A stretch of DNA of 63,936 bases, filler included, from Reclinomonas americana ATCC 50394 (lineage: Eukaryota): the NCBI GenBank assembly GCA_048213135.1. It is 10 parts of 3 records of this genome, joined end to end, with 100 filler letters (N's around TTAATTAATTAA, not from the genome) between each part and the next. Parts side by side here need not be neighbours in the genome. Positions count along the whole stretch, not along the records: positions 16,747 to 22,766 come from PS015484.1; positions 22,867 to 37,291 come from PS015484.1; 8 more parts are not named here. One strand, given 5' to 3'. Position 1 is the stretch's first letter, and each line of letters starts with the position of its first letter. The position numbers and the translations under genes are program-made. Below, one piece after another: positions 18,295 to 63,501 of this stretch. The notes beneath the pieces are model-generated. The model was not told the DNA's origin. It was given only the letters and a program-made list of their open reading frames with translations, and did no database searches.

Positions 18295-21200
18295 TCACAA
18301 CATCACGCCGGCCTCTCCTGCACGTCGTCGACACTCCTCCAACCACTCTATTGCAGTCCCCACGTCCTCGTCTCCACGCGCTTGCCGACCATCCACGCAC
18401 TCCACCAGCAGTGCCTCTGCCTCGATCCATCGCTGCAGCTTCGTAAGCAGGATGCCGTAGTTGCACATCGTGTACAATGTATCCTCGTGCCTGTCACCCA
18501 ACACCTGTCGTCTACCCTCCAAGCACTCACGGTACAAATCAGCAGCTTCGGCTAGTGCCTCTGCTGTGTTTTGTTGACAGAGAGAACGAGCACGATTGTT
18601 CGCTGAGGAGAGAGTGTCCGGATGTCTGTCTCCCAGTGCAGCTCGTGTCAAGCGTAAACAATCGCGCGTCATTTGAATCACTTCATCAAGACGACTGCCA
18701 CTTTTCCAAATACATGCGCCGAAGTTATTCATTGACACCAACGTGTCGGGATGCCCATCTCCAAGAACAAGTCTTCGCAACTCCCAGCACCGACGATGAA
18801 GTGTCTCAGCATCATTAAGTCGCCTTTCAAAAAACCGGACATTGCCCTGTGATTGCAGCGTCATTAGGGAATCCGGATGACCCTCACCCAGTATCGCACA
18901 CTGCCACTCATGACACTGCTGCAGAAGTAGCAAGTCGCGTGACCAAATAGCAAACCACATCAAGCAACGGAATGCGTCAATCTTATCTAGCACAGTCATC
19001 TCGCCACTGTCATCCGTCTCCCACTCCTCACACAATCGCCACGCCTGTTCACACGCTACATCGTGTTCATCCCACTCACGAAGCATATTAAACAACCATG
19101 CTTGACACTTTGCCACCACAACGGCAAACCGTCGTCGCACTGGACTAATGTCAACTACACCATCTCCACGTTGCCCACATTCTGTCACGCGTCGCACAAG
19201 CGAAGAAGCAACTGCCTCTTTGAATCCGACAGAAGGCAAACGTTCCACACAGCACAGCTCACCAATCCACTCCAATGCCCCACAATGCAGCAGTAGCCCA
19301 TTCACACCAACCACATCACTCGCCCACATGCGGTCATCCTCTCCCAACCGTCGCCACACCGTGTGCAACACACCGAGCACGTCACGCGACACCAACAGCA
19401 CACCGCCAATGTCAATCTGTGAATCAATGCCACTCAGCACACAGCACACCAGTCGCACAATCAGTCGCTGCATCCGTGACACTGCATCTCCACACCGTCC
19501 CACAATCCACCCGGCAATCTCATCGTGCACTCGATACTCCATCACCTCGTTGCTCTCTCTCACTTGCTCACCACATAGCACACGAACGACGCTATCCATG
19601 CTGCTACTAACACCGACCGTCACCAGATTCGACATACACAGACCCTCCAGCACATCCTCCACTCCGTCGTCACCACCACCACCCACCAACTCATTACGGC
19701 GCGCACGCACTCTTCGCTCCTCCTCCTCACTCATTTCGTCAAATTGCAGTCGCTCCCCCACCACCTCGGGTGCACACCGTCTTCTCTCCTTCGCCAGCTC
19801 ATGCAGCCACAGTCGACGCACACACTGACTCAACTCCACCAGCCGACTTGCTGCCTCCTCATCTTCATCCACAACAGCCTGCTCATCACCATCACCATCC
19901 ACAGCCATCGTCATATCGGGAATCACTCGCAACACACCCAGAGCCACTCGCGCAAGTGCCACTGTCACTGGCAAGCCGAGTTCCTTGCACGCCGAAATTA
20001 GAACCAACAGACGACGTGCTGCTGCTGTCTGCGACATCACATTGCGCTCCAGCAGCTGCGACAGTGCATCACCACCAATGCCACTCAGAACTTCCTCCAG
20101 TTGCGCTCCCACCAGCTGTGCTGGCAATTGTGACAGAAACCAGCTGTATGATCAAGAAGAGAAGAGAAGAAGAGAGTGAGTCTTCTCATCCACGCCACGT
20201 ACTCACTCACTCACCCACTCACCCAACACAAGCACTCACTCGCAGTGCACTCTTCTCCTGCTGTCCACTCTCCAGTGCCTCCACAATCCGTCGCCGCACT
20301 TCCTCCGACACGTTGTGGAGAAGTCGCTCCTCCACCAGCTGCATAATATCCTCACTCTCCACATTCTCCACTCGCACACACTCCACCTCCGCCTCGTGCA
20401 TCATCGAGTCACGAATCTCATCCGCCACTCGTCCATGTCGACTCGTCACCACCACAATCGGCGCCACCAGCCCACCTGCACACAGACACATGATGCACAT
20501 CAAGTCAGGACCCAACATCCAAGCAAGAATGAGCATTCTCACTCACGACACACGCACCCTCTCCAGCGCACTGAATAACATTCCGCACTTGCTCCGCCGA
20601 TCCCACATTGTCAAGCACCATCACTCCACTCGATGCATGCATCAGCTGTTGCAGCAGACGACGTGCTGGCTCCACCTCGCCACTCGCCAGCAGCGCATCC
20701 ATCTGGCTGGCCATTCTTCTTCCCTCGACTTCGTCCACTCGCATCTGTGCCGTCACAAAGGCACGAAGACACTCGCCAAGGGCACTCTCCGCCTGCAGCA
20801 AGTGGCATGGAGAGAGCGAGAGAGTCAGAATGGCAGTAGAGGGGGACGACGAAGCACGAAAGACGACATGCATGTCCCTCAGCACACCTTCACATGCTCC
20901 CTCGCATCACCCACATGACCACGCATCTCCACCGACACGGCCGATCCTTTCCACCGACGCGTCGCCTGCAACTCGGTCACCAGTAGCTCGACCAGGAACG
21001 ACTTACCAGTGCCACCCTCGCCCGTTAGCACCACCATGATTGGATGGTGTGCTGCGCAAGAATCATTCATCACAGACAACATGATGAGACACACGAACGT
21101 AGAGAAGGTTGATGGAGAAGGCGAATGAACACCCAACCTTCAACAGCATCCACAATACGCGTGGCGAGTGAAGCTGCCAGTGTACGCCGACTCGGGAAGC

Positions 21201-22661
21201 GGAACGCGATCACTGGATTGATGGTGCGGGCGATGAGAGGTGCATTGGGTGGGTGACTGCTGTCTGGTGCTGTGTGCCACAGAGAGAACAAGGGTGAGAA
21301 CAGAAATGCATGTTGAATGCATTCATGGAACACACCTGCAGCTGAGGGAGAAGAGGGCGAGATGGTCATTGTGTCAAGCCGTTGGTGCACACTCTCCACC
21401 TCCGCACGCATTGTCGCCTGCATCTCCATTCGCATCTGACCAACTAGCAAGTGAGAAACAATATCTGCAAGCGACCGCATCTGCATGCAGATCCACACAA
21501 CTTGCTCCACACTGGCTGCTATCGATGTCTGGTCTGCTTGACTCAGTGCGCCTGCATTCACACAATCAAGACAGCATCAGCTTCCACAATCCATCAAATC
21601 ATCAGCCATCTCTCTCCTCCCACTCACCATCACGAGCCTCGTTGAGCTGCACGACCAGTTCCTCCTCCACATCCCTGCCAATCTGCAACTGCCGCACAAG
21701 CTGGTGCAACTCGCCTTCACCGAGCAGAGGCACAAAGAGTGCACGAGCTCGGGAAGGAGCCGCTAGCTCAAACACCTCCCTCATTCGCTCAATTGCATTG
21801 CGCTGTGACGATGAGAGAGTGAGAGGTAAAATCACACAAAGAGAGAGATCACACTCCTCCTCCTTCCCATCTTTTCACTCATTCTCACACACTCACCACA
21901 TCGCCAGCTGGAATCAGATGATACGGCTCGTCCACCTGGTGCTCTCGATGACCCGCCAGCAGCAAGATTGAGCAGCACAGCATCGCATCAAACGAACTGC
22001 AGTCGTGCAGCTGGCCTCGTTGATGCCACTCGCGCACCGTCTGCCGCTCCTCCTCGTTCAGCTGAACACACATGCCCACTCCGTCTGGCATGGTGCTGCA
22101 TGTGGAGAAGGGAACAATGAAAAGAGAACGCTGGTGAGTGAGGAATGTATGTGACAAGAAAGAAGGTCATTCATCAGGGGTGGAATGTGGAGTGTTGGTG
22201 AGACAGTGAAGAGTGTGAGAATGGGGAGAAAAAGATGACCAGTGCGTCACCATCTGCCACTTGCTTGTTCTCTTCCTCTCTCATTCACATCTCCCATCTG
22301 CATCTTGCCATCGTGAGCTTCCCCTTTCCCTACATACACTCACCGCACATCACGCTCACTCGGCGCCTTGCACCACTCGGCAACATGATTCACACCGGGA
22401 TACGTATCGAGAAACGCCAGCAGCACTTGCTCGAGTTTGAATTGCAGAGCGCGGGTGCATGGACGAGAAAGGGCTTTGACAAGGCGAATCATGCATTCCT
22501 CATCACCAGCATCACGAGGATGACTGCACGAGAGAGGAGGAGAGGAGAGTGACAGGGAAACGAATCACACACAACGTGAGAATGATGATGATGACGTAAC
22601 AACAACAACACAATGAGAGAGAGACACGCAACTCACGCGGCACTCCACTCCCACTCGCCAT
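18295..22661 (-). CDS. NLR-like protein copy 1: uncharacterised N-terminal domain + NB-ARC-type STAND NTPase + TPR repeats
   Basis: Walker A VVLTGEGGTGKS, Walker B VMVLDNV, sensor-1 IVVVTSR, GLPL-like ELGLPV and MHD-like YRVHDEI are present. TPRs are ~42 aa with LGxxHPDTL. Several short 5' exons precede a ~1.8 kb last exon. Confidence 0.8.
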
Positions 22662-22725
22662 GATGATGCGTCACAACAACAAGAAGAACAAGCAGCACAC
22701 TGACAAGATGCACAGGGGAAAGACA

Positions 22726-22766
<41 letters not shown>

Positions 22767-23193
22767 NNNNNNNNNNNNNNNNNNNNNNNNNNNNNNNNNN
22801 NNNNNNNNNNTTAATTAATTAANNNNNNNNNNNNNNNNNNNNNNNNNNNNNNNNNNNNNNNNNNNNAAATTCAACAGCTCACGCTCCTTCTCTCTATTCT
22901 CTGTTGCACACGCACGCAGTGGGCAATGACACTGACACAGAACAGAACAGGGAACACACGAGCTCACTTCTGCTCAACAGCAGCAGCAACAACAAACCAC
23001 ACGTCACATGATTCGTAGGACAGGACTTCGTGGTGTGTGCATGCTGGCTCACAAGACGAACAGTACAAAGGCTTGTGCTTACAGGTACATTGTGTCCTGG
23101 TGCAAGTGCCAGTGGCAGCATCGGGAACAAGATGAAACGTCGAAAGGTATAGTCAAAGAAGAGGGAGACACGAGAGAGTGGTTCACTGCTCAG

Positions 23194-26100
23194 TCACAAT
23201 AGCACGCCAGCCTCTCTTGCAAGTCGTCGACACTCCTCCAAACACTCGATGACATATGCTGTAACTGGATGCCTTGCTCCAAGCACCGCTCGCCGATCAT
23301 CCACAAACTCCACCAGCAGTGCCTCTGCCTCGGCCCATCGTTGCTGGTTCATGAGCAGGTCACTGAAGTCGTACATCGTCTCCAATGTGTATTCATGTCT
23401 GTCACCCAGCACCTCACGCCGACCCTCCAAACACTGACGGTACAAGTCAGCAGCGTCTGCCAGTATCTCTGGCGTGTTTTGCTGCTTGAGATCAGCAGCA
23501 AGATTATACATCGAGGAGAGAGTGTGTGGATGCCAATCTCCCAGCGATGCTCGCCTAAACTGCAAACACTCTCTTTCAAGCCGAATAGCCTCCTCCAGGC
23601 GACTCTCATCATTGATGCATCCAGCGACGTTGTTCATGCAGGACAACGTGTCAGGATGCTCAGCTCCAAGAACCAGTCGCCGCATCTCCCAGCACCGTCG
23701 GAAGAGTGTCTCAGCCTCAGCATGTCGCTCCCAATTATAATGGTACAACGCCTGATAGTGCTGAGTCATCAGCGAGCCCGGATTACTCTCTCCAAGTGTC
23801 TCACACTGCCACTCATGACACTGCACCAGCAGTGGCAGATCGCCTGAATAGAAGGCGAACCACATCAAGCAGCGAAAAGCGTCAATCCTTAACAGCACAG
23901 TCATCTCGCCACTGTCATCCCTCTCCCACTCGTTGAACAAGCGCCACGCATGTTCCCACGCTGCTTCGCATTCATCCCACCGACGAAGCATATTAAACAG
24001 CCATGCTTGACACTTGGCCATCACGATGTCCAATAGTCGTCTCATTGGACTCATCTCAACATCGCCGTCTTCATGTTCTCCACAATGCGTCACGCGCCCC
24101 ACAAGAGACAAGGCCATAGCTGCGTCGAATCCCACCGAAGGCAGCCTTTCTCTGCCACACTGCTCACTGATCCACTCCACTGCCCCACACTGCACCATAA
24201 GCCCATTCACACCCACAGCATCACTCGCCCACATGCCATCATCCTCACCCAACCGCCGCCACACCGTGTGCAGCACACGGAGCAAGTCACGCGACACCAA
24301 CAGCACACCGTCACTGTCCATCTGTGAATCAATGCCATCCAGCACACAGCACACCAGTCGCATAATCAATCGCTGCGCCCGTGACCCGGCATCTCCACAT
24401 CGTCTCACAATCCACCCAGCAATCTCGTCGTGCACTCGATACTCCATCGCCTCATTGCTCTCTCTCACTTGCTCACCACACAACACACGCGCCACACTGT
24501 CCATGCTGCCACTGACACCCACCGTCACCAGATTCGACATGCACAGACCCTCCAGCACATCTTCCACTCCGTCACCAACACCACCACCACCCACCAACTC
24601 ATCACGCTGTGCACGCACCCGAAGCTCCTCCTCCTCACTCATCTCGTCAAACTGCAGTCGCTCACCCACTACCTCGGGTGCACGCCTCCGTCTCTCCTGT
24701 GCCAGCCCATGCAATCGCAGTCGACGCACACACTGACTCAACTCCACCAATCGACTTGCCGCCTCCTCATCTTCATCCGCCCTCCCACACGTGGTCATAT
24801 CGGGAATCACTCGCAACACACCCAGAGCCACTCGTGCAAGTGCAACAGTCACTGGCAATCCGAGTTCCTTGCATGCCGTGATCAGCACCAACAGACGACG
24901 TGCAGCTGCTGTCTGTGACATCACATTGCGCTCCAGCAATTGCGACAGTGCGTCGCCACCAACGCCACTCAGAACTTCCTCCAGTTGCGCTCCCACCAGC
25001 TGTGCTGGCAATTGTGACAGTAACCAGCTGTATGATCAAGAAGAGAGGGAAGAGTGAGTCTTCTCATCCACAAGCCGCTCACTTACAATCATATCACTCA
25101 CCCAACACAAGCACTCACTCGCAGTGCACTCTTCTCCTGCTGCCCACCCTCCAGTGCCTCCACAATCCGTCGTCGCACATCCCCCGACACGCTGTGGAGC
25201 AGTCGCTCCTCCACCAGCTGCACAATATCCTCGTTCTCCACATTCTCCACTCGCACACACTCCACCTCCGCCTCGTGCATCATCGAGTCACGAATCTCAT
25301 CTGCCACCTGCCCATACCGACTCGTCACCACCACAATCGGTGCCACCATTCCACCTGCACACAGACGCACACGCATGATGCACATCAAGTCAGGATCCAA
25401 CATACGAGCAAGAATGAGAATTCTGTCTCCCGACACGAACCCTCATCAGCACACTGAACAACACTCCTCACTTGCTCCGCCGATCCCACATTGTCCAGCA
25501 CCATCACTCCACTCGCTGCATGCATCAGCTGTCGCAGCAGTCGACGCGCTGGCTCCACCTCGCCACTCGCCAGCAGCGCATCCACCTGACCGGCCATCCT
25601 TCGTCCCTCCACTTCGTCCAGTCGCATCTGCGCCGTAACAAACGAACGCAGACACTCGCCCAGAGCGTTCTCCGCCTGCAGCATGGGGCACAGAGAGAGA
25701 GAGAGCGAGTCAGAATGACAGCAGAAGTACATTGCAATTGCAACATGAAATGACAACATGCATGTTCCCTCAGCACACACCTTCACATGCTCCCTCGCAT
25801 CACCCACATGGCCGCGCATCTCCACCGACACGGCTGATCCCTTCCATCGACGAGTCGCCAACAACTCAGTCACCAGTAGCTCGGCCAGGAATGACTTGCC
25901 AGTGCCACCATCACCAGTCAGCACCACCACGATTGGATGATGTGCTGCGCAAGAATCATCCACCACCGCAAACAAGATGAGACACGCGAATGTAGAGAAG
26001 GGAGAGGGAGAATGAGAAGGAACGCCCAACCTTCAACAGCATCCACAATGCGCGTGGCGAGTGAAGCTGCCAGTGTACGCCGACTGGGGAAGCGGAATGC

Positions 26101-27553
26101 AGTCACTGGATTCACGGTGCGGGCGATGAGTGGTGTCTTGGGTGGGCGACTGCTGTCTGGTGCTGTGTGGCACAGAGAGGAGTGAGCAGAGCAATGCACA
26201 TTGAATGCAGATCTATCATGGAACACACCTGCAGCAGAAGGAGAAGAGGGGGAGATGCTCATCTGGTCGTCTCCTTCGTGCATTTCCATTCGCATCTGAT
26301 CAATAATACGCAAGTGAGAAACGATGAGTCATCTGCAAGCGACCGCCGCTTCACGCGAATCCACTCAACTTGCTCCATGTGCGCCGCCATCGATGCCAGG
26401 TCCGCTTGACTCAGTGCACCTGAATTCACACACAATCAAGACAACATCAGCTTCCACGCTCAATCAAATCATCCACACACAAGCACCAGCATATCACTCA
26501 CCATCACGGGCCTCGTTCAGGTGCACCACCAGCTCCTCTTCCACATCCCTGCCAATCTGCAGCCGCCGCACAAGCTGGTGCAACTCGCCCTCTCCTCCTC
26601 CTCCATCACCGAGCAGAGGCACAAAGAGTGCACGAGCTCGTGCGGGACTCGCCTGCTCAAACACCTCCCTCATTCGCTCAATCGCATTGCGCTGTGACAA
26701 TGATAGAATGAGAGGCACAATCACACAGAGTGGGATATCACACTCCTCCTCCTTTCCATCTCCTCTCATTCCACACACTCACCACATCGCCCGCGGGAAT
26801 CAGACGATCTGGCTCGTCACCCGGATGCTCTCGATGACCCGCCCGCAACAAGATCGAGCAGCACAGCATCGCATCAAACGAACTGCAGTCGTGCAGCTGG
26901 CCTCGTTGATACCACTCGCGCACCAGCTGGCGCTCCTTCTCGTTCAACTGGACACACATGTCTACTCCGTCTGGCATGGTGCTGCATGGTGGGAAAGGCA
27001 CAAAGGAAAGAGAGGACGTGGTGAGTGAGGGAGATGTGCGACAAGAAAAAGGGGATTCATTAGGGATAGAATGCGGAGTCGTGTGAGGCGAGACAATGAA
27101 GAGTGAGAGAATGTGGAGAAAGAGATGACCAGTGCGTCACCATCTGCCACTTGCTTGTGACAATCTATTCTCTTCTCTCTTCCACTCTCGTTCACATCTC
27201 CAATCTGCATCTTGTCATCGTGTGCTTCCACATCCACCCCACATACACTCACCGCACATCACGCTCACTCGGCGCCTTGCACCACTCGGCAACATGATTC
27301 ACACCGGGATACGTATCGAGAAACGCCGGCAGCACTTGCTCAAGTTTCGATTGCAGAGCGCGAGTGCATGGACGAGACAGGGCATTCGCGAGGCACATTA
27401 TGCATTCCTCGTCACTAGCATCGTGATGATGACTGCACGAGGGAGAGAGGAGGAGAGGGAGCGAATCACACACAATGTGAGAATGATGATGATGCATCTG
27501 ACAACACAATGAGAGACACGCAACTCACGCGGCACTCCACTCCCACTTGCCAT
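23194..27553 (-). CDS. NLR-like protein copy 2 (NB-ARC-TPR)
   Basis: Same exon layout and motifs as copy 1 (TGDGGTGKS, VMVLDNV, VVVTSR, GLPV, VHD, LGAEHPDTL). Confidence 0.8.
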
Positions 27554-27986
27554 GATGATGCGTCACAACAACAAGAAGAACAACAGCACACTGGGAGACG
27601 CACAGAAGAATAACACACACACACACTCTCTCTCTCTCTCTCTCTCTGGCACAATAAGAAGCGGAGAAATGCACAAACTCACTCTCTCCTTCTCTCTCGC
27701 ACGCACGCACACACAGCAAGGGATAATACTGACACAGAGCAGAGCAGAACACACAAGCTCAGTTCTGCTCAAAGCAACAGCAAAACGCTCAGGCTTTCAC
27801 CGACACGCAATCAATCGTGGGACATGACTTCGTCGTGAGCTGGCTCATAAGACTCAGCGTGTCGCCGGCGAGAGACCTGTGCTACATGTGCACTATGTCG
27901 CCAGTGGAATATCGGCGAACACGATGAAACGTCGAGAGACGTCGTCGAGAAGTTCTTGGAGAAGTAGTGAGCAGGGTTTTTATCGT

Positions 27987-30900
27987 TCACAACATCACAC
28001 CGGCCTCTCTTGCACATCGCCGGCACTCCGCCAGTTTCTTGATTGCTAACACAGTCCTCGAATGCTCTTCACCAAGCACCGCTCGCCGACCATCCACGCA
28101 CTCCACCAGCAGTGCCTCTGCCTCGGCCCATCGTTGCAGCTTGACAAGCAGGTCACCGAAGTTGTACATTGTCGCCAATGTGCTTTCGTGCCTATCGCCC
28201 AGCACCTCACGCCGACCCTCCAAACACTGACGGTACAAATCAACAGCTTCTGCCAGTGATTCTGACGTATTTTGTTGCTCAAGAGAATAAGCAAGATTAT
28301 TCATCGACATGAGAGTGTTCGGATGCCGATCTCCCAGCGATGCTCGCCTCAACTGCAAACATTCTCGTTCAAGTTGAACTCTCTCCACCAGGCGACTGTC
28401 ATCTCGGATACACATGGCAACATTGCCCATGGACATCAACGTGTCCGGGTGCTCAGCTCCAAGAACCAGTCGCCGCATCTCCCAGCACTGTCGATACAGT
28501 GTCTCTGCCTCAGCATACTGCTGTTGGGCATGATGCTCCATCGCCTGCCATTGCAGAGTCGATGACGAGTCTGGATGGCACTCACCCAACGCCGCACACA
28601 GCCGCTCATGGCACTGCACCAGCAGTGGCAAGTTCTCTGAACAGAGAGCAAACCACATCAAGCATCGCAGTGCGTCCATCGTATCCAACACAGTCATTTC
28701 GCCACTGTCATCCGTCTCCCACTCTTCACACAATCGCCACGCCTGTTGCCACGCAGCTTCACGTTCGTCCCACTGACGATGTAACTCAAACAATAGCGCT
28801 TGAGACTTGGCCACCACCATGGCAAACCGTCGTCGCACAGGACTCAATTCAACATCACCATTTTCATCTCCGCGGTGATCACACTCTGTCACACGTCGCA
28901 CAAGCGACGACGCCACTGCCGCGCCAAATCCGACGGAGGGGAATCTTTGATAAGCACACTGCTCTCGAATCCACTCCACCGCCCCACACTGCACCATCAA
29001 CCCGTTCACACCAACAGCATCACTCGCCCACATGTCATCATCCTCGCCCAACCGCCGCCACACCGTATGCAGAACACTGAGCAAGTCACGTGATACCAAC
29101 AACACACCATCGTTGTCGATCTGTGAATCGATGCCACTCAGCACACAGCACACCAGTCGCATAATCAGTCGCTGCGCCCGTGACACGGTATCCCCACACC
29201 GTCCAACAATCCACCCAGCAATCTCATCGTGCACTCGATATTCCATCGCCTCGTTGCTCTCTCTCACTTGCTCGCCTGACAGCACACGCGCGACACTGTC
29301 CATGCTGCTACTAACACCAACCGTCACCAAATTTGACAAGCACAGACCCTCCAGCACATCTTCCACCTCGTCGTCACCTCTACCACCACCCACCAACTCA
29401 TCGCGCCGTGCACGCACTCGCTGCTCCTCCTCCTCACTCATCTCGTCAAACTGTAGTCGCTCACCCACCACCTCGGGTGCACGTCGTCGCCTCTCCTGCG
29501 CCAGCTCATGCAGTCGCAGTCGACGTACACACTGACTCAACTCCACCAGTCGACATGCCGCCTCTTCATCTTCATCACCACCATCCACAGCCACCGTCAT
29601 ATCGGGAATCACTCGCAACACACCCATCGCCACTCGTGCGAGTGCCACTGTCACTGGCAAGCCGAGTTCCTTGCACGCCGTGATCAGCACCAATAGACGA
29701 CGAGCGGCTGCTGTCTGTGACATCACGTTGCGCTTCAGCAGGTGCGACAGTGCATCAACGCCAATGCCACTCAGCACTTCCTCCAGTTGCGCTCTCACCA
29801 GCTGTGCTGGCGATTGTGACAGAAACCAGCTGCATGACGAAGAAAAACAAGACAGAAGAGTGAGTCTTCTCATCCACAAGACTAACTCTCTCACATTAAC
29901 TCACCCAACACAAGCACTCACTCGCAGTGCACTCTTCTCCTGCTGTCCACTTTCCAGTGCCTCCACAATCCGTCGTCGCACATCCCCCGACGCCTTGTGG
30001 AGCAGTCGCTCCTCCACCAGCTGCACAATATCCTCGTTCTCCACACTCTCCACCCGCAAACACTTCACCTCCGCCTCGTGCATCATCGAGTCGCGAATCT
30101 CATCCGCCACCCGCCCATATCGACTCGTCACCACAACAATCTGGGCCACTAGTCCGCCTGCGCATAGACGCGCATGATGCACATCAAGTCAGGATCCAAC
30201 ATCAAAGCAAGAATGAGCATTCTCACTCACGACACACACGCACCCTCATCGGCACACTGAACAACACTCCTCACTTGCTCCGCTGATCCCACATTGTCCA
30301 ACACCATCACTCCACTCGATGCGTGCATCAACTGTCGCAGCAGACGACGTGCTGGCCCCACTTCGCCACTCGCCAGCAGCGCATCCACTTGACCGGCCAT
30401 CATGCGTCCCTCCACTTCATTCACACGCATCTGCGCCGTCACAAAGGCACGCAGACACTCGCCCAGAGCACTCTCCGCCTGCAGCACGTGGCAGGGAGAG
30501 GGAGAGAGTCAGAATGCCAACGGAATGATGAAGCATCATGAAAAGACGACATGAATGATCCCTCAGCACACCTTCACATGTTCCCTCACATCACCCACAT
30601 GACCGCGCATCTCCACCGACACGGCAGATCCCTTCCAACGACGAGTCGCCAGCAACTCGGTCACCAGCAGCTCGGCCAGGAAAGACTTGCCAGTGCCACC
30701 ATCACCCGTCAGCACCACCATGATTGGATGATGTGCTGCGCAAGTAACATCCACCACAGACAACAAGATGAGACACATGAATGTGGAGAAGGAAGGAAGA
30801 GAGAAAGAAATGAACATCGAACCTTCCACAGCATCCACAATGCGTGTGGCGAGTGAGGCTGCCAGTGCACGCCGACTCGGGAAGCGGAATGTGGTCACTG

Positions 30901-32356
30901 GATTGACGGTGCACGCAATAAGAGGTGTCATGTGCAGATGGCTGCTGACTGGTGCTGTGTGGCACGGAGAGGAGTGGGCGTGAGCTTAGCAATGCACATT
31001 GAATGCAGATCTATCATGGAGCGCACCTGCAGCTGAGGGAGAAGAGGGAGAGATGCTCATCTGGTCGTCTCCTTCGTGCATTTCCATTCGCATCTGATCA
31101 ATAATACGCAAGGGAGAAACAATGAGCAATCTGCAAGCGACCGCCTTCCTCATGCATATCCACTCAACTTGCTCCATGTGCGCAAGCAGCAAGGACTGGT
31201 CTGCTTGACTCAATTCACCTGCATTCACACACGCACATACAAGGGGGCAGCAGCTTCCACATTCGATCATATCATCCACACCCAAGCAACAGCCATCTCT
31301 CCCTCCACTCACCGTCACGAGCCTCGTTCAGCTGCACCACCAATTCGTCCTCCACATCCCTGCCAATCTGCAGTCGTCGCACAAGCTGGTGCAACTCGCC
31401 CTCTTCCTCTCCTCCGTCGCCGAGGAGAGGCACAAAGAGTGCAACAGCTCGTGCGGAACTCGCTTGCTCAAACACCTCTCTCAGCCGCTCGATTGCATTG
31501 CGCTGTGACAATGAGAGAGTGAGAGGTAAAATCACACAAAGAGAGAGAGAGATCACACTCCTCCTCCTCCTTCTCAGTCACACACACGCACCACATCGCC
31601 AGCTGGAATCAGACGATCCGGCTCGTCTCTCGGGTGCTCTCGATGACCCGCCAGCAGCAAGATCGAGCAGCACAACGTTGCATCAAACGAACTGCACTCG
31701 TGCAGCTGGCCTCGCTGACGCCACTCGCGCACCAGCTGGCGCTCCTTCTCGTTCAACTTGACACACATGCCCACTCCGTCTGGCATGGTGCTGCACGGTG
31801 GAGAAGGGAACAATGAAAAGAGAACGCTGGTGAGTGAGGAATGTATGTGACAAGAAAGAAGGTCATTCATCAGGGATGGAATGTGGAGTGTTGGTGAGAC
31901 AGTGAAGAGTGTGAGAATGGGGAGAAAAAGATGACCAGTGCGTCACCATCTGCCACTTGCTTGTTCTCTTCCTCTCTCATTCACATCTCCCATCTGCATC
32001 TTGCCATCGTGAGCTTCCCCTTTCCCTACATACACTCACCGCACATCACGCTCACTCGGCGCCTTGCACCACTCGGCGACGTGATTCACACCGGGATACG
32101 AATCGAGAAACGCCGGCAGCACTTGCTCGAGTTTGGATTGCAGAGCGCGGGTGCACGGACGAGACAGTGCCTTGGCAAGGCGAATCTTGCATTCCTCATC
32201 ACCAGCATCACGAGGATGACTGCACGAGAGAGGAGGAGAGGAGAGTGACAGGGAACGAATCACACACAACGTGAGAATGATGATGATGACGTAACAACAA
32301 CAACACAATGAGAGAGAGACACGCAACTCACGCGGCACTCCACTCCCACTCGCCAT
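27987..32356 (-). CDS. NLR-like protein copy 3 (NB-ARC-TPR)
   Basis: Same exon layout and motifs as copy 1; the last exon is a long open frame. Confidence 0.8.
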
Positions 32357-32418
32357 GATGATGTGCCACAACAAGAGCAACAACAACAGCACACTGACAG
32401 ATGCACAGGGGAATGACA

Positions 32419-32459
<41 letters not shown>

Positions 32460-32799
32460 GCACAATATATTATAAGAAGCGGAGAAATGCAACAACTCGC
32501 TCTCCTTCTCTTGAGCACGCAAACACAGAGTGGGGAATGACACGGACACCGCCAGAACAGACACAAAAGCTCACTTCTGCTCACAGCAGCAGCAACAGCA
32601 AACCACACGTCACATGATTCGTAGGACAGGACTTCGTGGTGTGTGCATGCTGGCTCACAAGACGAACAGTACAAAGGCTTGTGCTTACAGGTACATTGTG
32701 TCCTGGTGCAAGTGCCAGTGGCAGCATCGGGAACAAGATGAAACGTCGAAAGATATAGTCAAAGAAGAGGGAGACACGAGAGAGTGGTTCACTGCTCAG

Positions 32800-35700
32800 T
32801 CACAATAGCACGCCAGCCTCTCTTGCAAGTCGTCGACACTCCTCCAAACACTCGATGACATATGCTGTAACTGGATGCCTTGCTCCAAGCACCGCTCGCC
32901 GATCATCCACACACTCCACCAGCAGTGCCTCTGCCTCGGCCCATCGTTGCTGCTTCATGAGCAGGTCACCGAAGTTGTACATCGTCTCCAATGTGTATTC
33001 ATGTCTGTCACCCAGCACCTCACGCCGACCCTCCAAACACTGACGGTACAAGTCAGCAGCGTCTGCCAGTATCTCTGGCGTGTTTTGCTGCTTGAGATCA
33101 GCAGCAAGATTGTTCATCGAGGAGAGAGTGTGCGGATGCCAGTCTCCCAGCGATGCTCGCCTAAACTGCAAACACTCTCTTTCGAGCCGAATAGCCTCCT
33201 CCAGGCGACTCTCATCTTTGATGCATACAGCGACGTTGTTCATGCAGGACAACGTGTCAGGATGCTCAGCTCCAAGAACCAGTCGCCGCATCTCCCAGCA
33301 CCGTCGGAAGAGTGTCTCAGCCTCAGCATGTCGCTCTCGATTATAATGGAGCAACGCCTGACTGTACTGAGTCATCAGCGAGCCCGGATTACTCTCTCCA
33401 AGTGTCTCACACTGCCACTCATGACACTGCACCAGCAGTGGCAAGCTGTCTGAATGATAAGCAAACCACATCAAGCATCGGAATGCGTCAATCCTTACCA
33501 GCACAGTCATCTCGCCACTGTCATCCCTCTCCCACTCGTTGAACAAGCGCCACGCATGTTCCCACGCTGCTTCGCATTCATCCCACCGACGAAGCATACT
33601 AAACAGCCATGCTTGACACTTGGCCATCACGATGTCCAATAGTCGTCTCATTGGACTCATCTCAACATCGACACCTGCGCGTTCTCCACACTCCGTCACA
33701 AGTCGTACTAGCGACAAGGCCACTGCTTTATCGAATCTGGCGGAAGGCAATTTGTCACTGGCACACAACTTACCGATCCACTCCAGCGCCCCACACTGCA
33801 CCAGCAGCCCATTCGTACTAACTGCATCACTCGCCCACATGCCATCATCCTCGCCCAATCGTCGCCACACTGCGTGCAGCACACAGAGCAAGTCACGCGA
33901 CACCAACAGCACACCGTCACTGTCCATCTGTGAATCAATGCCATCCAGCACACAGCACACCAGTCGCATAATCAATCGCTGCGCCCGTGACACGGCATCT
34001 CCACATCGTCTCACAATCCACCCAGCAATCTCGTCGTGCACTCGATACTCCATCGCCTCGTTGCTCTCCCTCACTTGCTCACCACACAACACACGCGCCA
34101 CACTGTCCATGCTGCCACTGACACCCACCGTCACCAGATTCGACATGCACAGACCCTCCAGCACATCTTCCACTCCGTCACCAACACCACCACCACCCAC
34201 CAACTCATCACGCTGTGCACGCACTCGCTGCTCCTCCTTTACGTTCATCTCATCAAACTGCAGTCGCTCACCCACCACCTCGGGTGCACGCCTCCGTCTC
34301 TCCTGTGCCAGCCCATGCAATCGCAGTCGACGCACACACTGACTCAACTCCACCAATCGACTTGCGGCCTCCTCATCTTCATCCGCCCTCCCACACGTGG
34401 CCATATCGGGAATCACTCGCAACACACCCAGAGCCACTCGTGCAAGTGCAACAGTCACTGGCAATCCGAGTTCCTTGCATGCCGTGATCAGCACTAACAG
34501 ACGACGTGCTGCCGCTGTCTGCGACATCACATTGCGCTCCAGCAGCTGCGACAGCGCATCACCACCAATGCCACTCAGCGCCTCCTCCAGTCGCGCTCCC
34601 ACCAGCTGTGCTGCTGATTGTGACAGCAACCAGCTGCATCAAAAAGAGAGAAGAGAGAGAAGAGTGAGTCTTCTCGTCCGCAGGCCACTCACTCACTCAC
34701 TCACCCAACACATGCACTCACTCGCAGTGCACTCTTCTCCTGCTGCCCACCCTCCAGTGCCTCCACAATCCGTCGTCGCACATCCCCCGACACGCTGTGG
34801 AGCAGTCGCTCCTCCACCAGCTGCACAATATCCTCGTTCTCCACATTCTCCACTCGCACACACTCCACCTCCGCCTCGTGCATCATCGAGTCACGAATCT
34901 CATCTGCCACCTGCCCATATCGACTCGTCACCACCACAATCGGTGCCACCATTCCACCTGCACACAGACGCACACGCATGATGCACATCAAGTCAGGATC
35001 CAACATACGAGCAAGAATGAGAATTCTGTCTCCCGACACGAACCCTCATCAGCACACTGAACAACACTCCTCACTTGCTCCGCCGATCCCACATTGTCCA
35101 GCACCATCACTCCACTCGCTGCATGCATCAGCTGTCGCAACAGACGACGTGCTGGCTCCACCTCACCACTCGCCAGCAGCGCATCCACCTGACCGGCCAT
35201 CCGTCTTCCCTCCACTTCATCCAGTCGCATCTGCGCCGTAACAAACGAACGCAGACACTCGCCCAGAGCGTTCTCCGCCTGCAGCATGGGGCACAGAGAG
35301 AGAGAGAGCGAGTCAGAATGACAGCAGAAGTACATTGCAATTGCAACATGAAATGACAACATGCATGTTCCCTCAGCACACACCTTCACATGCTCCCTCG
35401 CATCACCCACATGGCCGCGCATCTCCACCGACACGGCTGATCCCTTCCATCGACGAGTCGCCAACAACTCAGTCACCAGCAGCTCAGCAAGGAACGACTT
35501 GCCAGTGCCTCCCTCGCCCGTCAGCACCACCATGATTGGCTGATGTGCTGCGCAGGAATCATCACCACCAGACAACAAGATGAGACACACAAATGTGGAG
35601 AAGGCCGATGAAGAAAGAGAAGGAACACCCAACCTTCCACTGCTTCCACAATGCGTGTGGCAAGTGAAGCTGCCAGTGCACGACGACTTGGAAAGCGGAA

Positions 35701-37157
35701 TGCGGTCACAAGATTGACGGTGCGGGCGATGAGTGGTGTCATAGGCAGATGGCTGCTCTCTGGTGCTGTGGCACAGAGAGGAGTGAGTGTATGAACACAA
35801 CAATGCACATTGAATGCAGATCTATCATGGAGCGCACCTGCAGCTGAGGGAGAAGAGGGAGGGATGCTCATCTGGTCGTCTCCTTCGTGCACTTCCATAA
35901 GCATCTGGACAAGCACACGCAAGTGAGAAACAATGAGTCACCTGCAAGCGACCGCTTCTTCATGCAGATCCACTCAACTTGCTCCATGTGCGCCGCCATC
36001 GATGCCAGGTCCGCTTGACTCAGTGCACCTGAATTCACACACAATCAAGACAACATCAGCTTCCACCTTCGATCATGTCATTCACGCAAACGCAAGCCAT
36101 CTCTCTCCCTCCACTCACCGTCACGAGCCTCGTTCAGCTGCACCACCAATTCCTCCTCCACATCCCTGCCAATTTGCAGTCGTCGCACAAGCTGGTGCAG
36201 CTCGCCCTGTCCTCCTCCTTCTCCGGCACCGAGCAGAGGCACAAAGAGTGCACGAGCTCGAGCAGGACTCGCCTGCTCAAACACCTCCCTCATTCGCTCA
36301 ATCGCATCGCGCTGTGACAATGAGAGAGTGAGAGACACAATCAAACAGAGAGAGAGAGAGAGAGAGATCACACTCCTCCTCCTCCTTCTCAGTCACACAC
36401 ACGCACCACATCGCCAGCTGGAATCAGACGATCCGGCTCGTCTCTCGGGTGCTCTCGATGACCCGCCAGCAGCAAGATCGAGCAGCACAACATTGCATCA
36501 AACGAACGGCAGTCGTGCAGCTGGCCTCGCTGATGCCATTCGCGCACCAGCTGGAGCTCCCTGTCGTTCAACTGGACACACATGTCCACTCCGTCTGGCA
36601 TGGTGCTGCACGGTGGGAAAGGCACAAAGAAACGAGGAAGCTGGTGAGTGAGGGAACGCGTGACAAGAAAGAGAGGGCATTCATCAGGGATTGAATGCGG
36701 AGTTGTGTGGAGAGACAACGAAGAGCGGGAGAATGGAGAGAAAGGGATGACCAGTGCGTCACCATCTGCCACTTGCTTGTGGCAATCTTTTCTCTTCTCC
36801 TTCTGCATGTTGCCATTGTGTGCTTCCCACATATTTCCCCACACACTCACCGCACATCATGCTCACTCGGCACCTTGCACCACTCGGCAACATGATTCAC
36901 ACCGGGATACGAATCGAGAAACGCCGGCAGCACTTGCTCGAGTTTGGATTGCAGAGCGCGGGTGCAAGGACGAGACAGTGCTTTGGCGAGGCGCATCATG
37001 CATTCTTCATCACCAGCATCACGAGGATGACTGCACGAGAGAGGGGAGAGAGAGAAGGAACAAATCAGACACAATGTGAGAATGATGATGATGATGCATC
37101 TGACAACACAATGAGAGAGACACGCAACTCACGCGGCACTCCACTCCCACTCGCCAT
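32800..37157 (-). CDS. NLR-like protein copy 4 (NB-ARC-TPR)
   Basis: Same exon layout and motifs; very close to copy 2 over the last exon and 3' flank. Confidence 0.8.
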
Positions 37158-37214
37158 GATGATGCGTCACAACAACAAGCACAACAATAGCACGCTCACA
37201 GATGCACAGGGGAA

Positions 37215-37262
<48 letters not shown>

Positions 37263-37391
37263 CTACGTACGTACGTACGTACGTACGTACGNNNNNNNNN
37301 NNNNNNNNNNNNNNNNNNNNNNNNNNNNNNNNNNNTTAATTAATTAANNNNNNNNNNNNNNNNNNNNNNNNNNNNNNNNNNNNNNNNNNNN

Positions 37392-40220
37392 TCCACTGCA
37401 CGTGGTTGACGCGTCGCAAAAAACGGAACACGCTGAGCCGTAGTAGCCTGTTGCACATGAGCAGAGACCTGCGCTGTCACAGGAGCCATGGCCACTGCAC
37501 GTGACAGCAGGGTTGCAGTAAACGTTGCATGTCGGTGCTGGAACGTAGTACTGTGCACACTGCAAGCAGAAGGGGCCACTGTTGTTGCTGGCACAAGCTG
37601 TGTGAATCGCAAAAGAATGAGTACAATTGTTGAGGCGTGTGCGTGTGGTGTGCGCACGTATGAGTGTGTGTGTGTGTGATGACTCACCTGCAGTGGTGAA
37701 GGACACAACTTGTCCCGAAGTCATACCGACAACTGCACGATAAAAGTACTGCGTGGACGCCTTCAGAGAAGTAAGTGGAGCGCTGAGAGCGGTTGTGCTT
37801 CCTCCAGAGCTAGTTAGCGGAGAGGCCGGAACAGAACCCGGCGGAACCGCCACCATGCGGATAGTTTGGTCCTCGTTGTCTGTGCAGCGTCCGCAAAATA
37901 TCATGAGCTCCCAGTCTATGCCTGGGGGAACAACACGCGGGGACAAACCAGAGAGTGCCAGCATACGCAGAGTTTCGCTGAAACCAAGGCCCCACTACGC
38001 ATATCGAAAATCCAATAAATGTGAGTCGCGACGTCGCACCATGGACGTGATGCAAGCACAACGCAACAGGGACTACGAAAGATGCATCGACACCGAATCC
38101 GTCAGCCCACGTTGAAACATCGGGCGATCCAGCCACAGTTGTGACGAAGCCGCCAATCGTGATGCTTCGCAGAATTGAGTTGTAGCGCTGCGTCTCGCAA
38201 CAAGCATGTCAGCCACAACGCAGACCACATGCCTACCACGACTACTGGCTGAAGGTCAGACGCAACGTCGGAGACATACAGCATGCCAGAGAGCTCGTCG
38301 ACAACGATACCGGCTGGACGGTTGAATCGCGCAACTGAACCAGCACCATCAGCAGTTCCCACTGTTCCCACTGTGCCAGCCAAGGTCGTCACCATCCGCG
38401 TGCTGAGATCCACGACACGCACGGTGTTGTCTGAGCTGGTAAAGTACAGCTTGTTTCGACCAACATCAACAGCTACGCCGAGGGGGCCGGTGAGCTTCGC
38501 CGCTGAGCCGATACCATCAACCGATGAGCCGCGTTTTGTGGGATTTCCCGCAAGCGTGAAGGCCGTCGTGCCAACATACGGCAGCCGCCGCAAGGTGTTA
38601 TTGTTTGTGTCGGCTACGTAGATCCAACGCACAGTGACGTCGAGACACAGACCAGACGGCCCGCTGAATGTCACCGGCGCTGTGTCCGACACGCCTCGAG
38701 TTCCGTTACCGGCCACAGTACTCACGGTCCCCAGCGACAATTTTCGCACGGCATTGTTCGCAGTCTGCACAACGGCGCGCAGCTGCGTCAACATGTGCCC
38801 GACACAAACATGTTGATCGACGGCAAACGACGCACCTCAGAAACGTAAATGTCGCCCGATGGAAGGTCTACGGCAACTGCTGCTGGCGTATTGAACTTTG
38901 CCGACAGCGCAGCACCGTCAACGAAACCGGCGCGGCCCACTTGGCCGCCAATTGTCGTCGTAACACCTGCCGGTGTTATGCGCCGGAGGGTGTGACTGGA
39001 CAGAGATAACAGCAGAAAAAACAAGTTGAGCGAAATGCGCTGAGACGAGAAGGAGAGACATAACATACGCACTTTCCCGAGTCGCACACCACGACATTTC
39101 CGGCAGCATCAAATGCAACTCCCTACGAGGCGAGAGTAAGTTGCGCACACAAACATGCACCAATGCAACAAAACTGGAGCGAGGAAACCAACCTGCGGAG
39201 AGGAGAATGAGGCAGCGTCTGCCACTCCGTCGTCGGAACCGGGGACGCCGCTGCCAGCAAGAGTCGTCACCGGAAACCGGCTTTCAAACAACGAGGCGGA
39301 CATGGACACCTCGAAAGAATTGGCGAACGTGCCGAGATTGTTGGCGTTCGCCGTGCCCAGCAGCGTGGCACTAAATTGTGAGATGCTGGTTGCCGCATTG
39401 GTCGCCGCCGTGGGGCCTGTACCAAGGCGCATAGTGAGTGAACAATCTGAATGGACGGTCAGAGCGACTTCTGGTGCACGTGCCTGTGACGCGTGTCGAG
39501 AAGTTCGCCGGTGCAAGAGATGAGTCGGGCAGCGCTAGCATCGCCGTCGGCTTTCGCAGAGCACGTGCACGCTCTGCTTCCAACACGCTGTGTTTAGAGA
39601 TCGTCTCCCCAACAATCGCCACACATCTTCGCACTCACCGATAACAAACTCGGCTGTGCTCTCCACACGGTCGCCCTCCGACCAGCACTGCACAGTCACA
39701 CGCAGCGTGGCCACCGTCACGCCCTCCGCAGACATGATCAGCGCCGACAGCTGTTGGTCCACTTGCACCAGCGCGGCATCGTTCCCCGCTATCGAGCACT
39801 CGCCAACGGGTACCATCACAGGCGACTCTCCAGTGCGCACGAGTCGCAGCATTCCAATGAGGCGGCCACGTTGCGAAGGCGCCACATATGTTGTGTTGGT
39901 AAGGTGCAAACCTGTGTGTGAGAGAGAGAACATAAGTCATCGACTCTTTCTCTCTCTCTGTCATTCCATGACACTCATATGAGGCAAGAAATAGGAGAAA
40001 ACCGAGAGAGCGGCGTGTGAAAAGCGAGTGTGTGTGCGTGTGTGTGTGGTATGACACGCGCAGCCGGATTAGGCAAGAGTGGCGTGCCAACAACAACGCA
40101 ACGTTGATTGTGGTGCTGTGTGGCAGACAGCTCCAGTGGAGAGCATGAGAGCACGAAGGCCACGCAGCAAACGAGAAGAAATAGAGTGTACGGGCGAGTG
40201 CGAGAAGTTTTTCCAAGGAG
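37392..40220 (-). CDS. Secreted/surface protein with cadherin-like domain, NHL beta-propeller repeats, FN3-like and EGF repeats; 3' end lost in gap
   Basis: Signal-like TLFLLVCCVAFVLSCS. NHL repeats such as TTLAGTVGTVGTADGAGSVARFNRPAGIVVD...LYVSD. FN3-like LKASTQYFYRAV. EGF CSGHGSCDSAGLCSCATGYYGSAC. The start codon was not located. Confidence 0.7.
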
Positions 40221-59901: not shown

Positions 59902-60818
59902 TCACCAGTACAGCCAAGGTGGATCATCGAGGTGCCGATGCACCACGACTCCCGCCTCCTCGACCACGAAACAACGCAGCGCCATCTCCGGCAGGCACCG
60001 CGAATCCTGTTCCTTCTCTCCTGCGCCTGCCTGCATCTCCTGGACAGCACGCAAGGCCAAACGCGCCGCCTGCAGCTCCTGCTGCGCGAGGCCGTACGGG
60101 GTGGACAGCAGTCGCACAGCATTGTCGCGACACCCGATCACCAAGAAGCGACCGTCGACGGTGCACGCGACAGAATACACACAATCAGAGTGTCCCTCCA
60201 AGCGCCGCACCTCCTCACCACTCGCCAGCGACCACACACGCACCGTTTGGTCCCAACCCCCACTCACGACATGCTGAGAGTCGGGAGTGACGGTCACCGA
60301 CAACACCGCACCGGTGTGCGCCTTTAGGTGTCGCACTTCCTCGCCACTCGTCACAGGCCACACTCGCACANNNNNNNNNNNNNNNNNNNNNNNNNNNNNN
60401 NNNNNNNNNNNNNNTTAATTAATTAANNNNNNNNNNNNNNNNNNNNNNNNNNNNNNNNNNNNNNNNNNNNGCCAGAATGTCCTTCCAGCCGTCGCACCTC
60501 CTCGCCACTCGCCAGCGACCACACGCGCACAGTCTTGTCAAGGCCTCCACTGACAATGAGCTGGTCATCGAAAGTGATGCCAACAGATTGCACCGCGCCA
60601 GCGTGTCCCTTCAACAGTCGCATTTGCTCGCCACTCTCCACAGACCACACGCGCACTGTGGAGTCGTAGCTGCCGCTCACAATGTGCTGCCCGTCACGCG
60701 TGACCGCAACACACGCCACACTGTTCGTGTGTCCCTGCAAGACCTGACGACACCGACCATTCACGGTGAGCACACACACTGGATGCAGACACACGAGCCC
60801 ACCCACCTTGGTTGTCAT
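59902..60818 (-). CDS. WD40-repeat protein with a short helical C-terminal tail; middle repeats lost in gap
   Basis: MTTK|VLQGHTNSVACVAVTRDGQHIVSGSYDSTVRVW; 42-aa GH...W repeats lie on both sides of the linker at 60415. Confidence 0.8.
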
Positions 60819-62617: not shown

Positions 62618-62717
62618 NNNNNNNNNNNNNNNNNNNNNNNNNNNNNNNNNNNNNNNNNNNNTTAATTAATTAANNNNNNNNNNNNNNNNNNNNNNNNNNN
62701 NNNNNNNNNNNNNNNNN

Positions 62718-62854: not shown

Positions 62855-63501
62855 GCGATCCAATTTGTCCGATCACTCTTTCCCTCCAGATCTCTCCTTG
62901 CCTCACCCCCTCTCCTCTCTTCTTACTTACCCTCTCTCCCTCTCTGTCCCCCCCACACACAGAGGCCTCCCTCGACCTCACCACCGGCGACCTGAGCTTT
63001 CAGTGGCGACTTGGAGGCCCAGAAGGCGCACAAATGTCACGACAGGTCAGCTCACACACACACTCTCTCTCACACACACACACACACTCACACTCACGCT
63101 CACACAGTGGCGCGGTCGTGGTCTTGTTCATCTGCATCTAGCCCCGCCCGAGTGAACCGAATGAACCGCGGAATTCCCTTACATTTCAAAAACACACTCC
63201 GCGCGCACAGGTACCGAGTCTCCTCCGCACGCAGCCACCTCACGCACTCGCATCTCTCGTGTCCATAAGAGCTTCACTCTGCGTGTGTCACTGTGATCAC
63301 TGTGTCTGTGTGTGTGCGTGTGTTTGTGAGGGCGCACATGCACATGTGCATGTGACACACCGCCACACAAGGCCAGGCGCCTCTCTCGCGCACGCACGCA
63401 CGCACTCTCTATCTGCACGCCACCTCCTATTTATGAATGGACAGAAACGCTCACTGTGTCTCTCTGTCTCCCTCTGTGTGTGTGTGTGTCATGTCGCGCA
63501 G

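Follow-up and report, generated by a model that had tools for sequence, protein, structure and literature searches.

A tandem array of four paralogous genes was analysed in a 63,936-nt stretch of the Reclinomonas americana ATCC 50394 genome (assembly GCA_048213135.1), which is called the window below. The genes lie head to tail on the minus strand between positions 18295 and 37157 and are numbered c1 to c4 by position. The locus is probably a compact array of four intact, maintained paralogues for proteins of ~1,110 aa that combine a divergent STAND/NB-ARC-type NTPase with TPRs. Each protein is predicted to consist of an N-terminal region of ~290 aa, a divergent P-loop NTPase with a STAND/NB-ARC (AP-ATPase-like) core, a helical region of ~380 aa, and five to six TPRs. 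The ~380-aa region would occupy the place of the helical and winged-helix regulatory modules of STAND proteins.

The gene models were built from GT-AG sites at positions shared by the four copies, together with a single open frame; splicing was thus predicted from sequence. Every copy yielded 11 exons and one intact open reading frame (ORF; lengths and exons in Table 1), with ten GT-AG introns of 66-271 nt at identical positions. The ATG-to-stop spans were 4358-4370 nt, and the last exons were open over 1834-1849 nt. An earlier note on this DNA had described four head-to-tail paralogues of ~4.4 kb with a common exon layout and open last exons. This description was borne out, its end coordinates matched exactly, and the predicted exons of each copy join into a single frame, a point that the note had singled out for checking. 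An automatic splice-path search over-spliced the genes and was discarded in favour of the junctions conserved across the four copies. A 9-exon model (1039-1050 aa), for which a conserved 'MPDGV' ATG served as the start, was also replaced by the 11-exon model, because an upstream 180-nt block was in frame and its substitutions were biased to the third codon position. This block, exon 2, has a YAG acceptor at one border and a GTGAGT donor at the other, is open in all copies and joins the next exon in frame. Its substitutions at codon positions 1/2/3 in the six copy pairs were 2/5/11 (c1-c2), 1/4/6, 1/5/6, 3/3/14, 3/4/11 and 0/3/7, mostly at position 3. A conserved start ATG ('MASGSGVP') with A-3/G+4 context was found ~110-140 nt upstream of it.

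Two candidate donors of the first intron, 4 nt apart, were present in every copy (22633-22640, 27525-27532, 32328-32335 and 37129-37136, minus strand). Use of the upstream consensus donor GTGAGT gives a peptide of only 19 aa (c1, c2 and c4) or 52 aa (c3), and use of GTTGCG, 4 nt downstream, gives the continuous 1110-1121-aa ORF in all four copies. It is possible that these paired donors act as a switch between productive and non-productive splicing. In c1 and c4 an in-frame ATG of the long ORF and the stop of the short one overlap (ATGA). Intron 5 has the form GTTG[TA]G...YCAG and is 66-75 nt long; when it is left unspliced, c2 and c4 are frame-shifted and c1 and c3 are still open. Between the Walker A and Walker B exons lies an intron of 95 nt in c1 and 93 nt in c3. 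In c2 (25676-25780) and c4 (35279-35383), on the minus strand, it is 105 nt, stop-free and a multiple of three, and its retention would add 35 hydrophobic residues to the NTPase without truncation. Antisense ORFs such as 19611-20918 (plus strand) were dismissed as by-products of GC-rich coding sequence because their translations were of low complexity.

A repeat search placed the 4-copy direct-repeat families at 18.2-37.3 kb, with a start-to-start spacing of 4787-4909 nt, and the intergenic distances in the array are 433-532 nt. When the c1 model was searched with tblastn against the 63.9-kb window, exactly four copies and no further copy or fragment were found. Pairwise nucleotide identity between whole units (MAFFT) was 82-91% and peaked at 91% for c2 and c4; the amino acid identity of this pair was 92.3%. 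Exons and introns were conserved almost evenly, indicating that the copies are young or homogenised. The 300-nt segments 22977-23276 and 32583-32882, at and past the 3′ ends of c2 and c4, were 99% identical (repeat family D20). This is far above the 91% of the whole c2 and c4 units and points to very recent gene conversion or a two-unit duplication.

The C-terminus is securely assigned as a TPR domain of the kinesin light chain (KLC)/nephrocystin-3 (NPHP3) type by profile matches and the predicted fold. For the last exon of c1, Pfam reported TPR_12 (1.3e-20, 73.8 bits, cut-off 30.1) and TPR_10 (1.7e-14, 53.7 bits, cut-off 27.5), both above threshold. The LGxxHPDTL motif that the earlier note had assigned to these repeats was present in all four copies. 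The AlphaFold2 model of the last exon contained 11-13 paired helices over residues ~340-615, with a predicted local confidence (pLDDT) of 80-96. In Foldseek the best match was the KLC1 TPR domain (7ai4_A, E 2.1e-7, TM 0.72 normalised to target length), followed by KLC2 and LGN/Pins, among 126 matches at E<=0.001. A homologue search with the last exon returned TPR-based matches only, namely 168 proteins at E<=0.001 whose alignments covered 23-50% of the query at 25-42% identity; they were bacterial proteins of the kinase-TPR, CHAT-TPR and NB-ARC-TPR types. In each copy, all TPRs lie within the one uninterrupted last exon.

The coding sequence of the NTPase is spread over exons 8-10, and no single exon identifies it. 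Pfam scans were made on contiguous fragments only, and the spliced NTPase was compared by hhalign and HMMER with reference proteins found in the homologue searches. The earlier note had listed an ordered NB-ARC motif set, and all of its strings were found in all four copies. Three of them are secure: Walker A (G[ED]GGTGKS), Walker B (VMVLDNV, with the Asp present and Asn as the next residue) and the TSR block VVVTSR (RNBS-B/sensor-1). VVVTSR lies 23 residues past VMVLDNV (residues 406 to 429 of c1). Walker A aligned with GGVGKT and VVVTSR with 'liTSR' of the NB-ARC-TPR profile, and the alignment was collinear through a pre-P-loop F.FPSRR, GxGGTGKS, VMVLDNV and VVVTSR. The remaining two strings fared less well, as the reading of GLPV and VHD as the GLPL and MHD motifs was not supported by alignment and is possibly wrong.

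For the profile-profile comparison, an alignment of the four paralogues (residues 171-700 of the 9-exon models) was used as the hhalign query. Against nine NB-ARC-TPR references the match was 91.7% (E 7.8e-7, 114 columns). The match to one NACHT-TPR protein, 83.8% over 75 columns, was shorter and weaker, and three AAA_16-type proteins reached 69%. A deeper template was then available from 129 aligned TIR-NB-ARC-TPR sequences out of 239 proteins, built on residues 150-530 of P0032. With this template the match was 93.6% (E 2e-7, 135 columns), which took in Walker A, Walker B and TSR and reached into an RNBS-C-like 'V.V..L..e.a..L' segment, and it was 94.7% (E 6e-8) for the nucleotide-binding domain (NBD) alone. 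The reversed query gave 0.3%. When the P-loop was removed, the same register was recovered at 28% (E 6e-4). In the first comparison, with nine NB-ARC-TPR references, the nSTAND1, NPHP3_N and ParA-like controls gave 5%, 4% and 0.7%. These comparisons give good, but not conclusive, support for an NB-ARC-like STAND nucleotide-binding core. The class proposed by the earlier note thus holds as the best profile-profile match, an NB-ARC-type NBD, but no contiguous fragment scored above the Pfam threshold for NB-ARC or NACHT.

Several observations weigh against this reading of the locus. The splice model is a prediction from sequence, and its first donor and intron 5 were chosen solely by the open frame in the four copies. 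No contiguous fragment reached any Pfam NTPase threshold. Because the 105-nt intron is open and in frame in c2 and c4, a contiguous read-through fragment of 185 aa could be scanned; its best Pfam matches were AAA_22 (1.7e-4 to 6.2e-4), AAA_16, AAA_25, nSTAND3 and NPHP3_N, with E from 1.7e-4 to 8e-3 and all sub-threshold. Pfam NB-ARC was not reported for any contiguous exon or read-through fragment, and Pfam NACHT reached E 0.19-0.22 over fragment residues 5-27 only, with no match beyond the P-loop. An hmmsearch of the spliced models with the 129-sequence NB-ARC-TPR profile gave ~9 bits, and the hhalign query profile was shallow, being made of four near-identical paralogues. The second acidic residue of Walker B is replaced by Asn in all four copies. 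Downstream of the NBD, the region that should hold the ARC/winged-helix half of the template (DUF7779) matched it at 0.2% in hhalign. The middle region itself had no match among 1.84 billion (1.84e9) representatives and no consistent neighbour in the ESM Atlas (scores <=0.80), and its pLDDT in AlphaFold2 was below 50 both inside the last exon and alone. With no detectable ARC/winged-helix likeness and no confident fold, a defining half of the STAND module is putative. No signal of positive selection was seen at the resolution used, dN/dS (the ratio of nonsynonymous to synonymous substitution) being below 1 in every region among four paralogues, which are too few for site tests.

The Walker A exon gave sub-threshold Pfam matches to AAA_16, AAA_22, PIF1, Zeta_toxin and KAP, and the NPHP3_N profile likeness (E 0.005-0.008) was limited to the P-loop. 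Single-sequence phmmer was blank except for a weak P-loop match to one NACHT-TPR protein. No homologue of the Walker A-B read-through fragment was found (0 of 2680 candidates), and a PDB sequence search gave chance-level matches only (E>=0.13). With regard to the Asn in Walker B, the consensus of the bacterial NB-ARC-TPR profile is likewise 'ilDNa', and such a residue after the Asp may slow hydrolysis.

The same data bear on the alternative that these proteins are non-STAND P-loop NTPase-TPR scaffolds (AAA_22/AAA_16-like, KAP-like or NPHP3-like), acting as cytoskeletal, ciliary or trafficking adaptors or chaperone-like factors. The generic, sub-threshold nature of the only Pfam NTPase matches, the undetectable ARC/winged-helix module, kinesin light chain as the best TPR fold match and dN/dS below 1 everywhere would all fit such scaffolds. 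Nevertheless, the best and longest profile-profile match was to NB-ARC-TPR proteins and was collinear from Walker A to the RNBS-C-like block, whereas the NPHP3_N and ParA-like controls stayed at the low values given above. Moreover, recent tandem expansion and a fast-evolving repeat tail are atypical for housekeeping adaptors. We consider such scaffolds unlikely.

Of the N-domain/NTPase/TPR architecture claimed in the earlier note, the P-loop NTPase and the TPR tail were recovered, but the ARC/winged-helix module was undetected (hhalign 0.2%, pLDDT <50). The middle region lies at the start of the last exon and is predicted to be all-helical. It gave no Pfam match at E<=10 (three copies), and since its pLDDT was below 50, no fold search there is meaningful. 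Candidate motifs (VGW[FL]LSQ, ELGLPV, LH[EG]L and RVHD) were present in the copies, and their assignment is ambiguous. In low-confidence alignments, the 'G.LPLA' of the template fell at VGW[FL]LSQLP, at the exon 10/11 junction ~75 residues past TSR. 'ELGLPV' stood opposite the 'pIP' motif at the winged-helix start, and the template 'vHrL' (MHD equivalent) stood opposite 'LH[EG]L', with 'RVHD' ~90 residues beyond. For the pieces of the N-terminal ~290 aa (exons 1-7) that were scanned, Pfam reported nothing at E<=10 except one match at chance level (E 0.13), and no known death or effector domain in Pfam was matched.

Selection was then compared along the proteins by Nei-Gojobori dN/dS on the 9-exon models and by pN/pS in 40-codon windows on the 11-exon models. 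Over the six copy pairs, dN/dS was 0.07-0.17 in the NBD, 0.15-0.19 in the first and 0.19-0.41 in the second part of the middle region, 0.16-0.40 in the N-terminal region and 0.30-0.44 in the TPRs, and pN/pS was <=0.72 in every window. All four copies are under purifying selection; together with the complete ORFs, dN/dS below 1 throughout indicates that they are selectively maintained. Amino acid change was concentrated in the C-terminal ~350 residues. In pairs other than c2-c4, dN was ~0.20-0.25 in the TPRs versus ~0.04-0.05 in the NBD, about fivefold, and in the c2-c4 pair it was 0.035 versus 0.009. dS was higher in the 3′ half of the genes, which suggests homogenisation of the 5′ half.

Another alternative is that these are true STAND NTPases with a non-immune role, for example in developmental cell death as an Apaf-1-like adaptor, or as a signalling regulator resembling MalT/AfsR, multiplied by neutral tandem duplication. 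It shares all the structural evidence set out above, and both the lack of visible positive selection and an N-terminal domain unlike known death or effector domains agree with it. On the other hand, four paralogues have been retained, with amino acid divergence concentrated in the putative sensor half, and clustering has been reported for candidate defence NB-ARC-TPR genes of Ectocarpus (12 of 24 loci, PMC3341825). A non-immune role of this kind appears distinctly improbable.

The assembly was considered as well. Nine identical 100-nt N44-TTAATTAATTAA-N44 blocks occur in the window, three of them next to array contigs (Table 1) and the others at 8550-8649, 13550-13649, 41742-41841, 50274-50373, 60371-60470 and 62618-62717. 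We take TTAATTAATTAA to be a six-frame-stop device for contig joining. At least 10 contigs thus make up the window, together with several sized N gaps of 20-710 nt. c2, c3 and c4 are uninterrupted in one contig (22867-37291), and c1 is on a separate contig (16747-22766). Because a spacer separates c1 from c2, scaffolding is the basis both for their adjacency and for the size of the gap, which could conceal more sequence. A search of public sequencing runs returned three DNA runs of a single sample, with a best share of 0.10, and no RNA run. A case for a partial assembly artefact, or for decaying pseudogenes, could be argued from these nine spacers and the other N runs, from the joining of c1 to c2 only across a spacer, and from the single 450-nt contig (35855-36303) of the listed public DNA runs that could be placed on the c2-c4 contig. 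Against this, three copies share one unbroken contig, ORFs are complete in all four with dN/dS of 0.07-0.44, and the copies differ in 9-18% of nucleotides and are therefore not collapsed or duplicated reads. We regard an artefact or decay as very improbable. A coding-strand (GA)n tract of ~30-50 nt was seen ~60-100 nt upstream of the ATG in every copy (~22700-22766, 27600-27640, 32400-32460 and 37200-37260), followed in c4 by (ACGT)n. Both contig breaks adjoining the array fall within these (GA)n/(TC)n tracts preceding start codons.

If the proteins are divergent STAND NTPases, a mode of action can be proposed by analogy with the paradigm of Apaf-1, plant NLRs and bacterial Avs. The TPR tail would keep the NTPase ADP-bound and off and would serve as the ligand sensor. 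Ligand binding would relieve autoinhibition and allow ADP/ATP exchange and oligomerisation, which would in turn gather the N-terminal domains for signalling or cell killing. We infer STAND-type switching and a receptor role from this analogy, and by the same reasoning an immune or allorecognition function would be plausible.

The array was compared with known systems of similar layout. Bacterial TIR-NB-ARC-TPR proteins (NB-ARC PF00931, DUF7779 and TPR_10/TPR_12; P0032 and 119 listed relatives) share the order of an NTPase followed by TPR_10/12. They are collinear with the array in an F.GR-like pre-P-loop motif, GxGGxGK[ST], an hhhhDN Walker B and a (T/S)SR block, and their TPRs are 30-42% identical to those of the array over the repeat region. 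In contrast, the array proteins have no TIR and far fewer TPRs, DUF7779/winged helix is undetected in them, and they are encoded by eukaryotic genes with 10 introns. The TPR tail agrees in its fold and in its 42-residue repeats of the TPR_10/12 type with kinesin light chain and nephrocystin-3, but KLC has no NTPase and the likeness to NPHP3_N (hhalign 4%) is confined to the P-loop.

Among eukaryotes, three published cases offer comparisons. Ectocarpus siliculosus has 24 NB-ARC-TPR loci, 12 of them clustered, in which every repeat has an exon of its own and undergoes shuffling; selection on them was reported to be diversifying (Zambounis et al., 2012, PMC3341825). The array resembles them in an NB-ARC-like NTPase with C-terminal TPRs, in clustering and in variability concentrated in the TPRs. 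It differs from them in having all TPRs in one exon of 1.83-1.85 kb and dN/dS below 1, and in that the Ectocarpus proteins have a recognisable InterPro NB-ARC domain whereas the array fragments are below Pfam thresholds (PMC3341825). In the unicellular Acanthamoeba castellanii, which has 6.2 introns per gene, one NB-ARC-TPR homologue appears in a list of candidate receptors for pattern recognition (Clarke et al., 2013, PMC4053784). That single homologue has a recognisable disease-resistance domain (PMC4053784), whereas the present array has four genes and a much more divergent NTPase. Fungal NLRs (NB-ARC/NACHT with TPR/ANK/WD) share the tripartite layout, in which a variable N-terminal domain precedes a STAND NTPase and superstructure-forming repeats, and are candidates for non-self recognition, the role that the earlier note had proposed (Dyrka et al., 2014, PMC4986451). 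By comparison, the N-terminal domain of the array matches no known fungal effector domain in Pfam. A hallmark of fungal NLRs is that their internal repeats are highly similar to each other.

The earlier note had called such systems little described in this lineage; this was not supported, NB-ARC-TPR genes being on record from protists and algae (PMC3341825, PMC4053784). The architecture is not new, nor is its clustering, given descriptions from brown algae, amoebae and fungi. The array is a divergent variant of the known NB-ARC-TPR type, with nothing yet surprising to a specialist; what is unusual here is the degree of divergence, with no Pfam NTPase match for the fragments and no homologue detected for the N-terminal and middle parts, as well as the single-exon TPR block and the tandem alternative first-intron donors. 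In the literature searched on NB-ARC-TPR and STAND NTPases of protists and unicellular eukaryotes, this family was not described; the genome's own paper may describe it. The organism's own proteins appear to be absent from the homologue collections searched, and PADLOC gave weak generic matches only, with nothing meaningful.

NB-ARC/NACHT-repeat receptors are central to the innate immunity of plants, animals, fungi and bacteria; in protists, sampling of their distribution and of their effector repertoire is poor. The four genes at this locus form a compact and intact family, and only their TPR tail and NTPase core can be recognised. Should the N-terminal and middle regions turn out to work as effector and regulatory modules, the STAND toolkit would gain new parts, and the array would also show how far such receptors drift past sequence-based detection. 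If the proteins are ordinary scaffolds instead, the locus would be a routine tandem duplication. A more far-reaching reading, which we offer tentatively and with some doubt, is that these are the first sampled members of an unseen lineage-specific clade of NLR-like STAND receptors in a eukaryote that is unicellular or early-branching. Two new domain types would then be present, the N-terminal ~290 aa as a new effector and the ~380 aa after the NBD as a remodelled ARC/regulatory module. The four genes would form a small diversifying battery for microbes or non-self, possibly with on/off control by the paired donors.

Table 1. Coordinates in the window of the array genes, their parts, the adjoining spacers and neighbouring genes
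Feature	Position	Strand	Remarks
c1, 11-exon gene, 1121 aa	18295-22661	-	exons 22661-22633, 22523-22344, 22095-21897, 21802-21628, 21551-21502, 21435-21336, 21269-21138, 21051-20888, 20792-20558, 20475-20223, 20143-18295
c2, 11-exon gene, 1110 aa	23194-27553	-	exons 27553-27525, 27432-27253, 26981-26783, 26691-26502, 26419-26370, 26295-26229, 26162-26031, 25944-25781, 25675-25441, 25354-25102, 25027-23194
c3, 11-exon gene, 1113 aa	27987-32356	-	exons 32356-32328, 32219-32040, 31790-31592, 31502-31313, 31218-31169, 31093-31027, 30954-30823, 30735-30572, 30478-30244, 30157-29905, 29829-27987
c4, 11-exon gene, 1111 aa	32800-37157	-	exons 37157-37129, 37030-36851, 36605-36407, 36311-36119, 36028-35979, 35904-35838, 35765-35634, 35547-35384, 35278-35044, 34957-34705, 34633-32800
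Exon 2, 180 nt, most conserved block of unit	c1 22344-22523; c2 27432-27253; c3 32219-32040; c4 37030-36851	-	repeat family D14, 89-95% identity
c1 putative NBD coding region, exons 7 (part)-10 with introns	20223-21204	-	FRFPSRR 21204-21184; Walker A GEGGTGKS 21022-20999; Walker B VMVLDNV 20624-20604; VVVTSR 20455-20438
c2 putative NBD coding region	25102-26097	-	Walker A 25915-25892; Walker B 25507-25487; VVVTSR 25334-25317
c3 putative NBD coding region	29905-30889	-	Walker A 30706-30683; Walker B 30310-30290; VVVTSR 30137-30120
c4 putative NBD coding region	34705-35700	-	Walker A 35518-35495; Walker B 35110-35090; VVVTSR 34937-34920
c1 middle region, ~380 aa	19006-20142	-	'ELGLPV' 19983-19966; 'RLWLHELA' 19815-19792; 'YRVHDE' 19536-19519
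Middle-region equivalents	c2 23911-25026; c3 28704-29828; c4 33517-34632	-	
c1 TPR domain, ~5-6 KLC/NPHP3-type TPRs with LGxxHPDTL	18298-19005	-	Pfam, AlphaFold2, Foldseek
c2 TPR domain	23197-23910	-	alignment to c1
c3 TPR domain	27990-28703	-	alignment to c1
c4 TPR domain	32803-33516	-	alignment to c1; last exon matched TPR proteins only
Spacer N44-TTAATTAATTAA-N44	22767-22866	.	between c1 and c2
Spacer, identical	37292-37391	.	directly upstream of c4
Spacer, identical	16647-16746	.	downstream of c1
EGF/DSL-like cysteine repeats and NHL-repeat gene	37392-38836	-	directly upstream of array; DSL 1e-4 (sub-threshold), NHL 6.7e-8
STRA6-like retinol-binding-protein-receptor fragment	40462-41115	-	1.8e-10
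Legume-lectin/LamG ORF	54789-58100	-	two legume-lectin-like domains (Lectin_legB 6e-23), Laminin_G_3 7e-21
PhyH-like dioxygenase ORF	15335-16321	-	2e-6
Ribosomal protein L19e N-terminal exon	63142-63615	+	2.2e-17

Rfam and tRNA scans of the window returned no RNA genes. The other recognisable genes sampled in the window were all eukaryotic in character (Table 1). The lectin frame extends over 54789-58487 (minus strand) with 1232 stop-free codons and enters an N gap at 58101-58422; it is very large and apparently intron-poor amid an intron-rich region.

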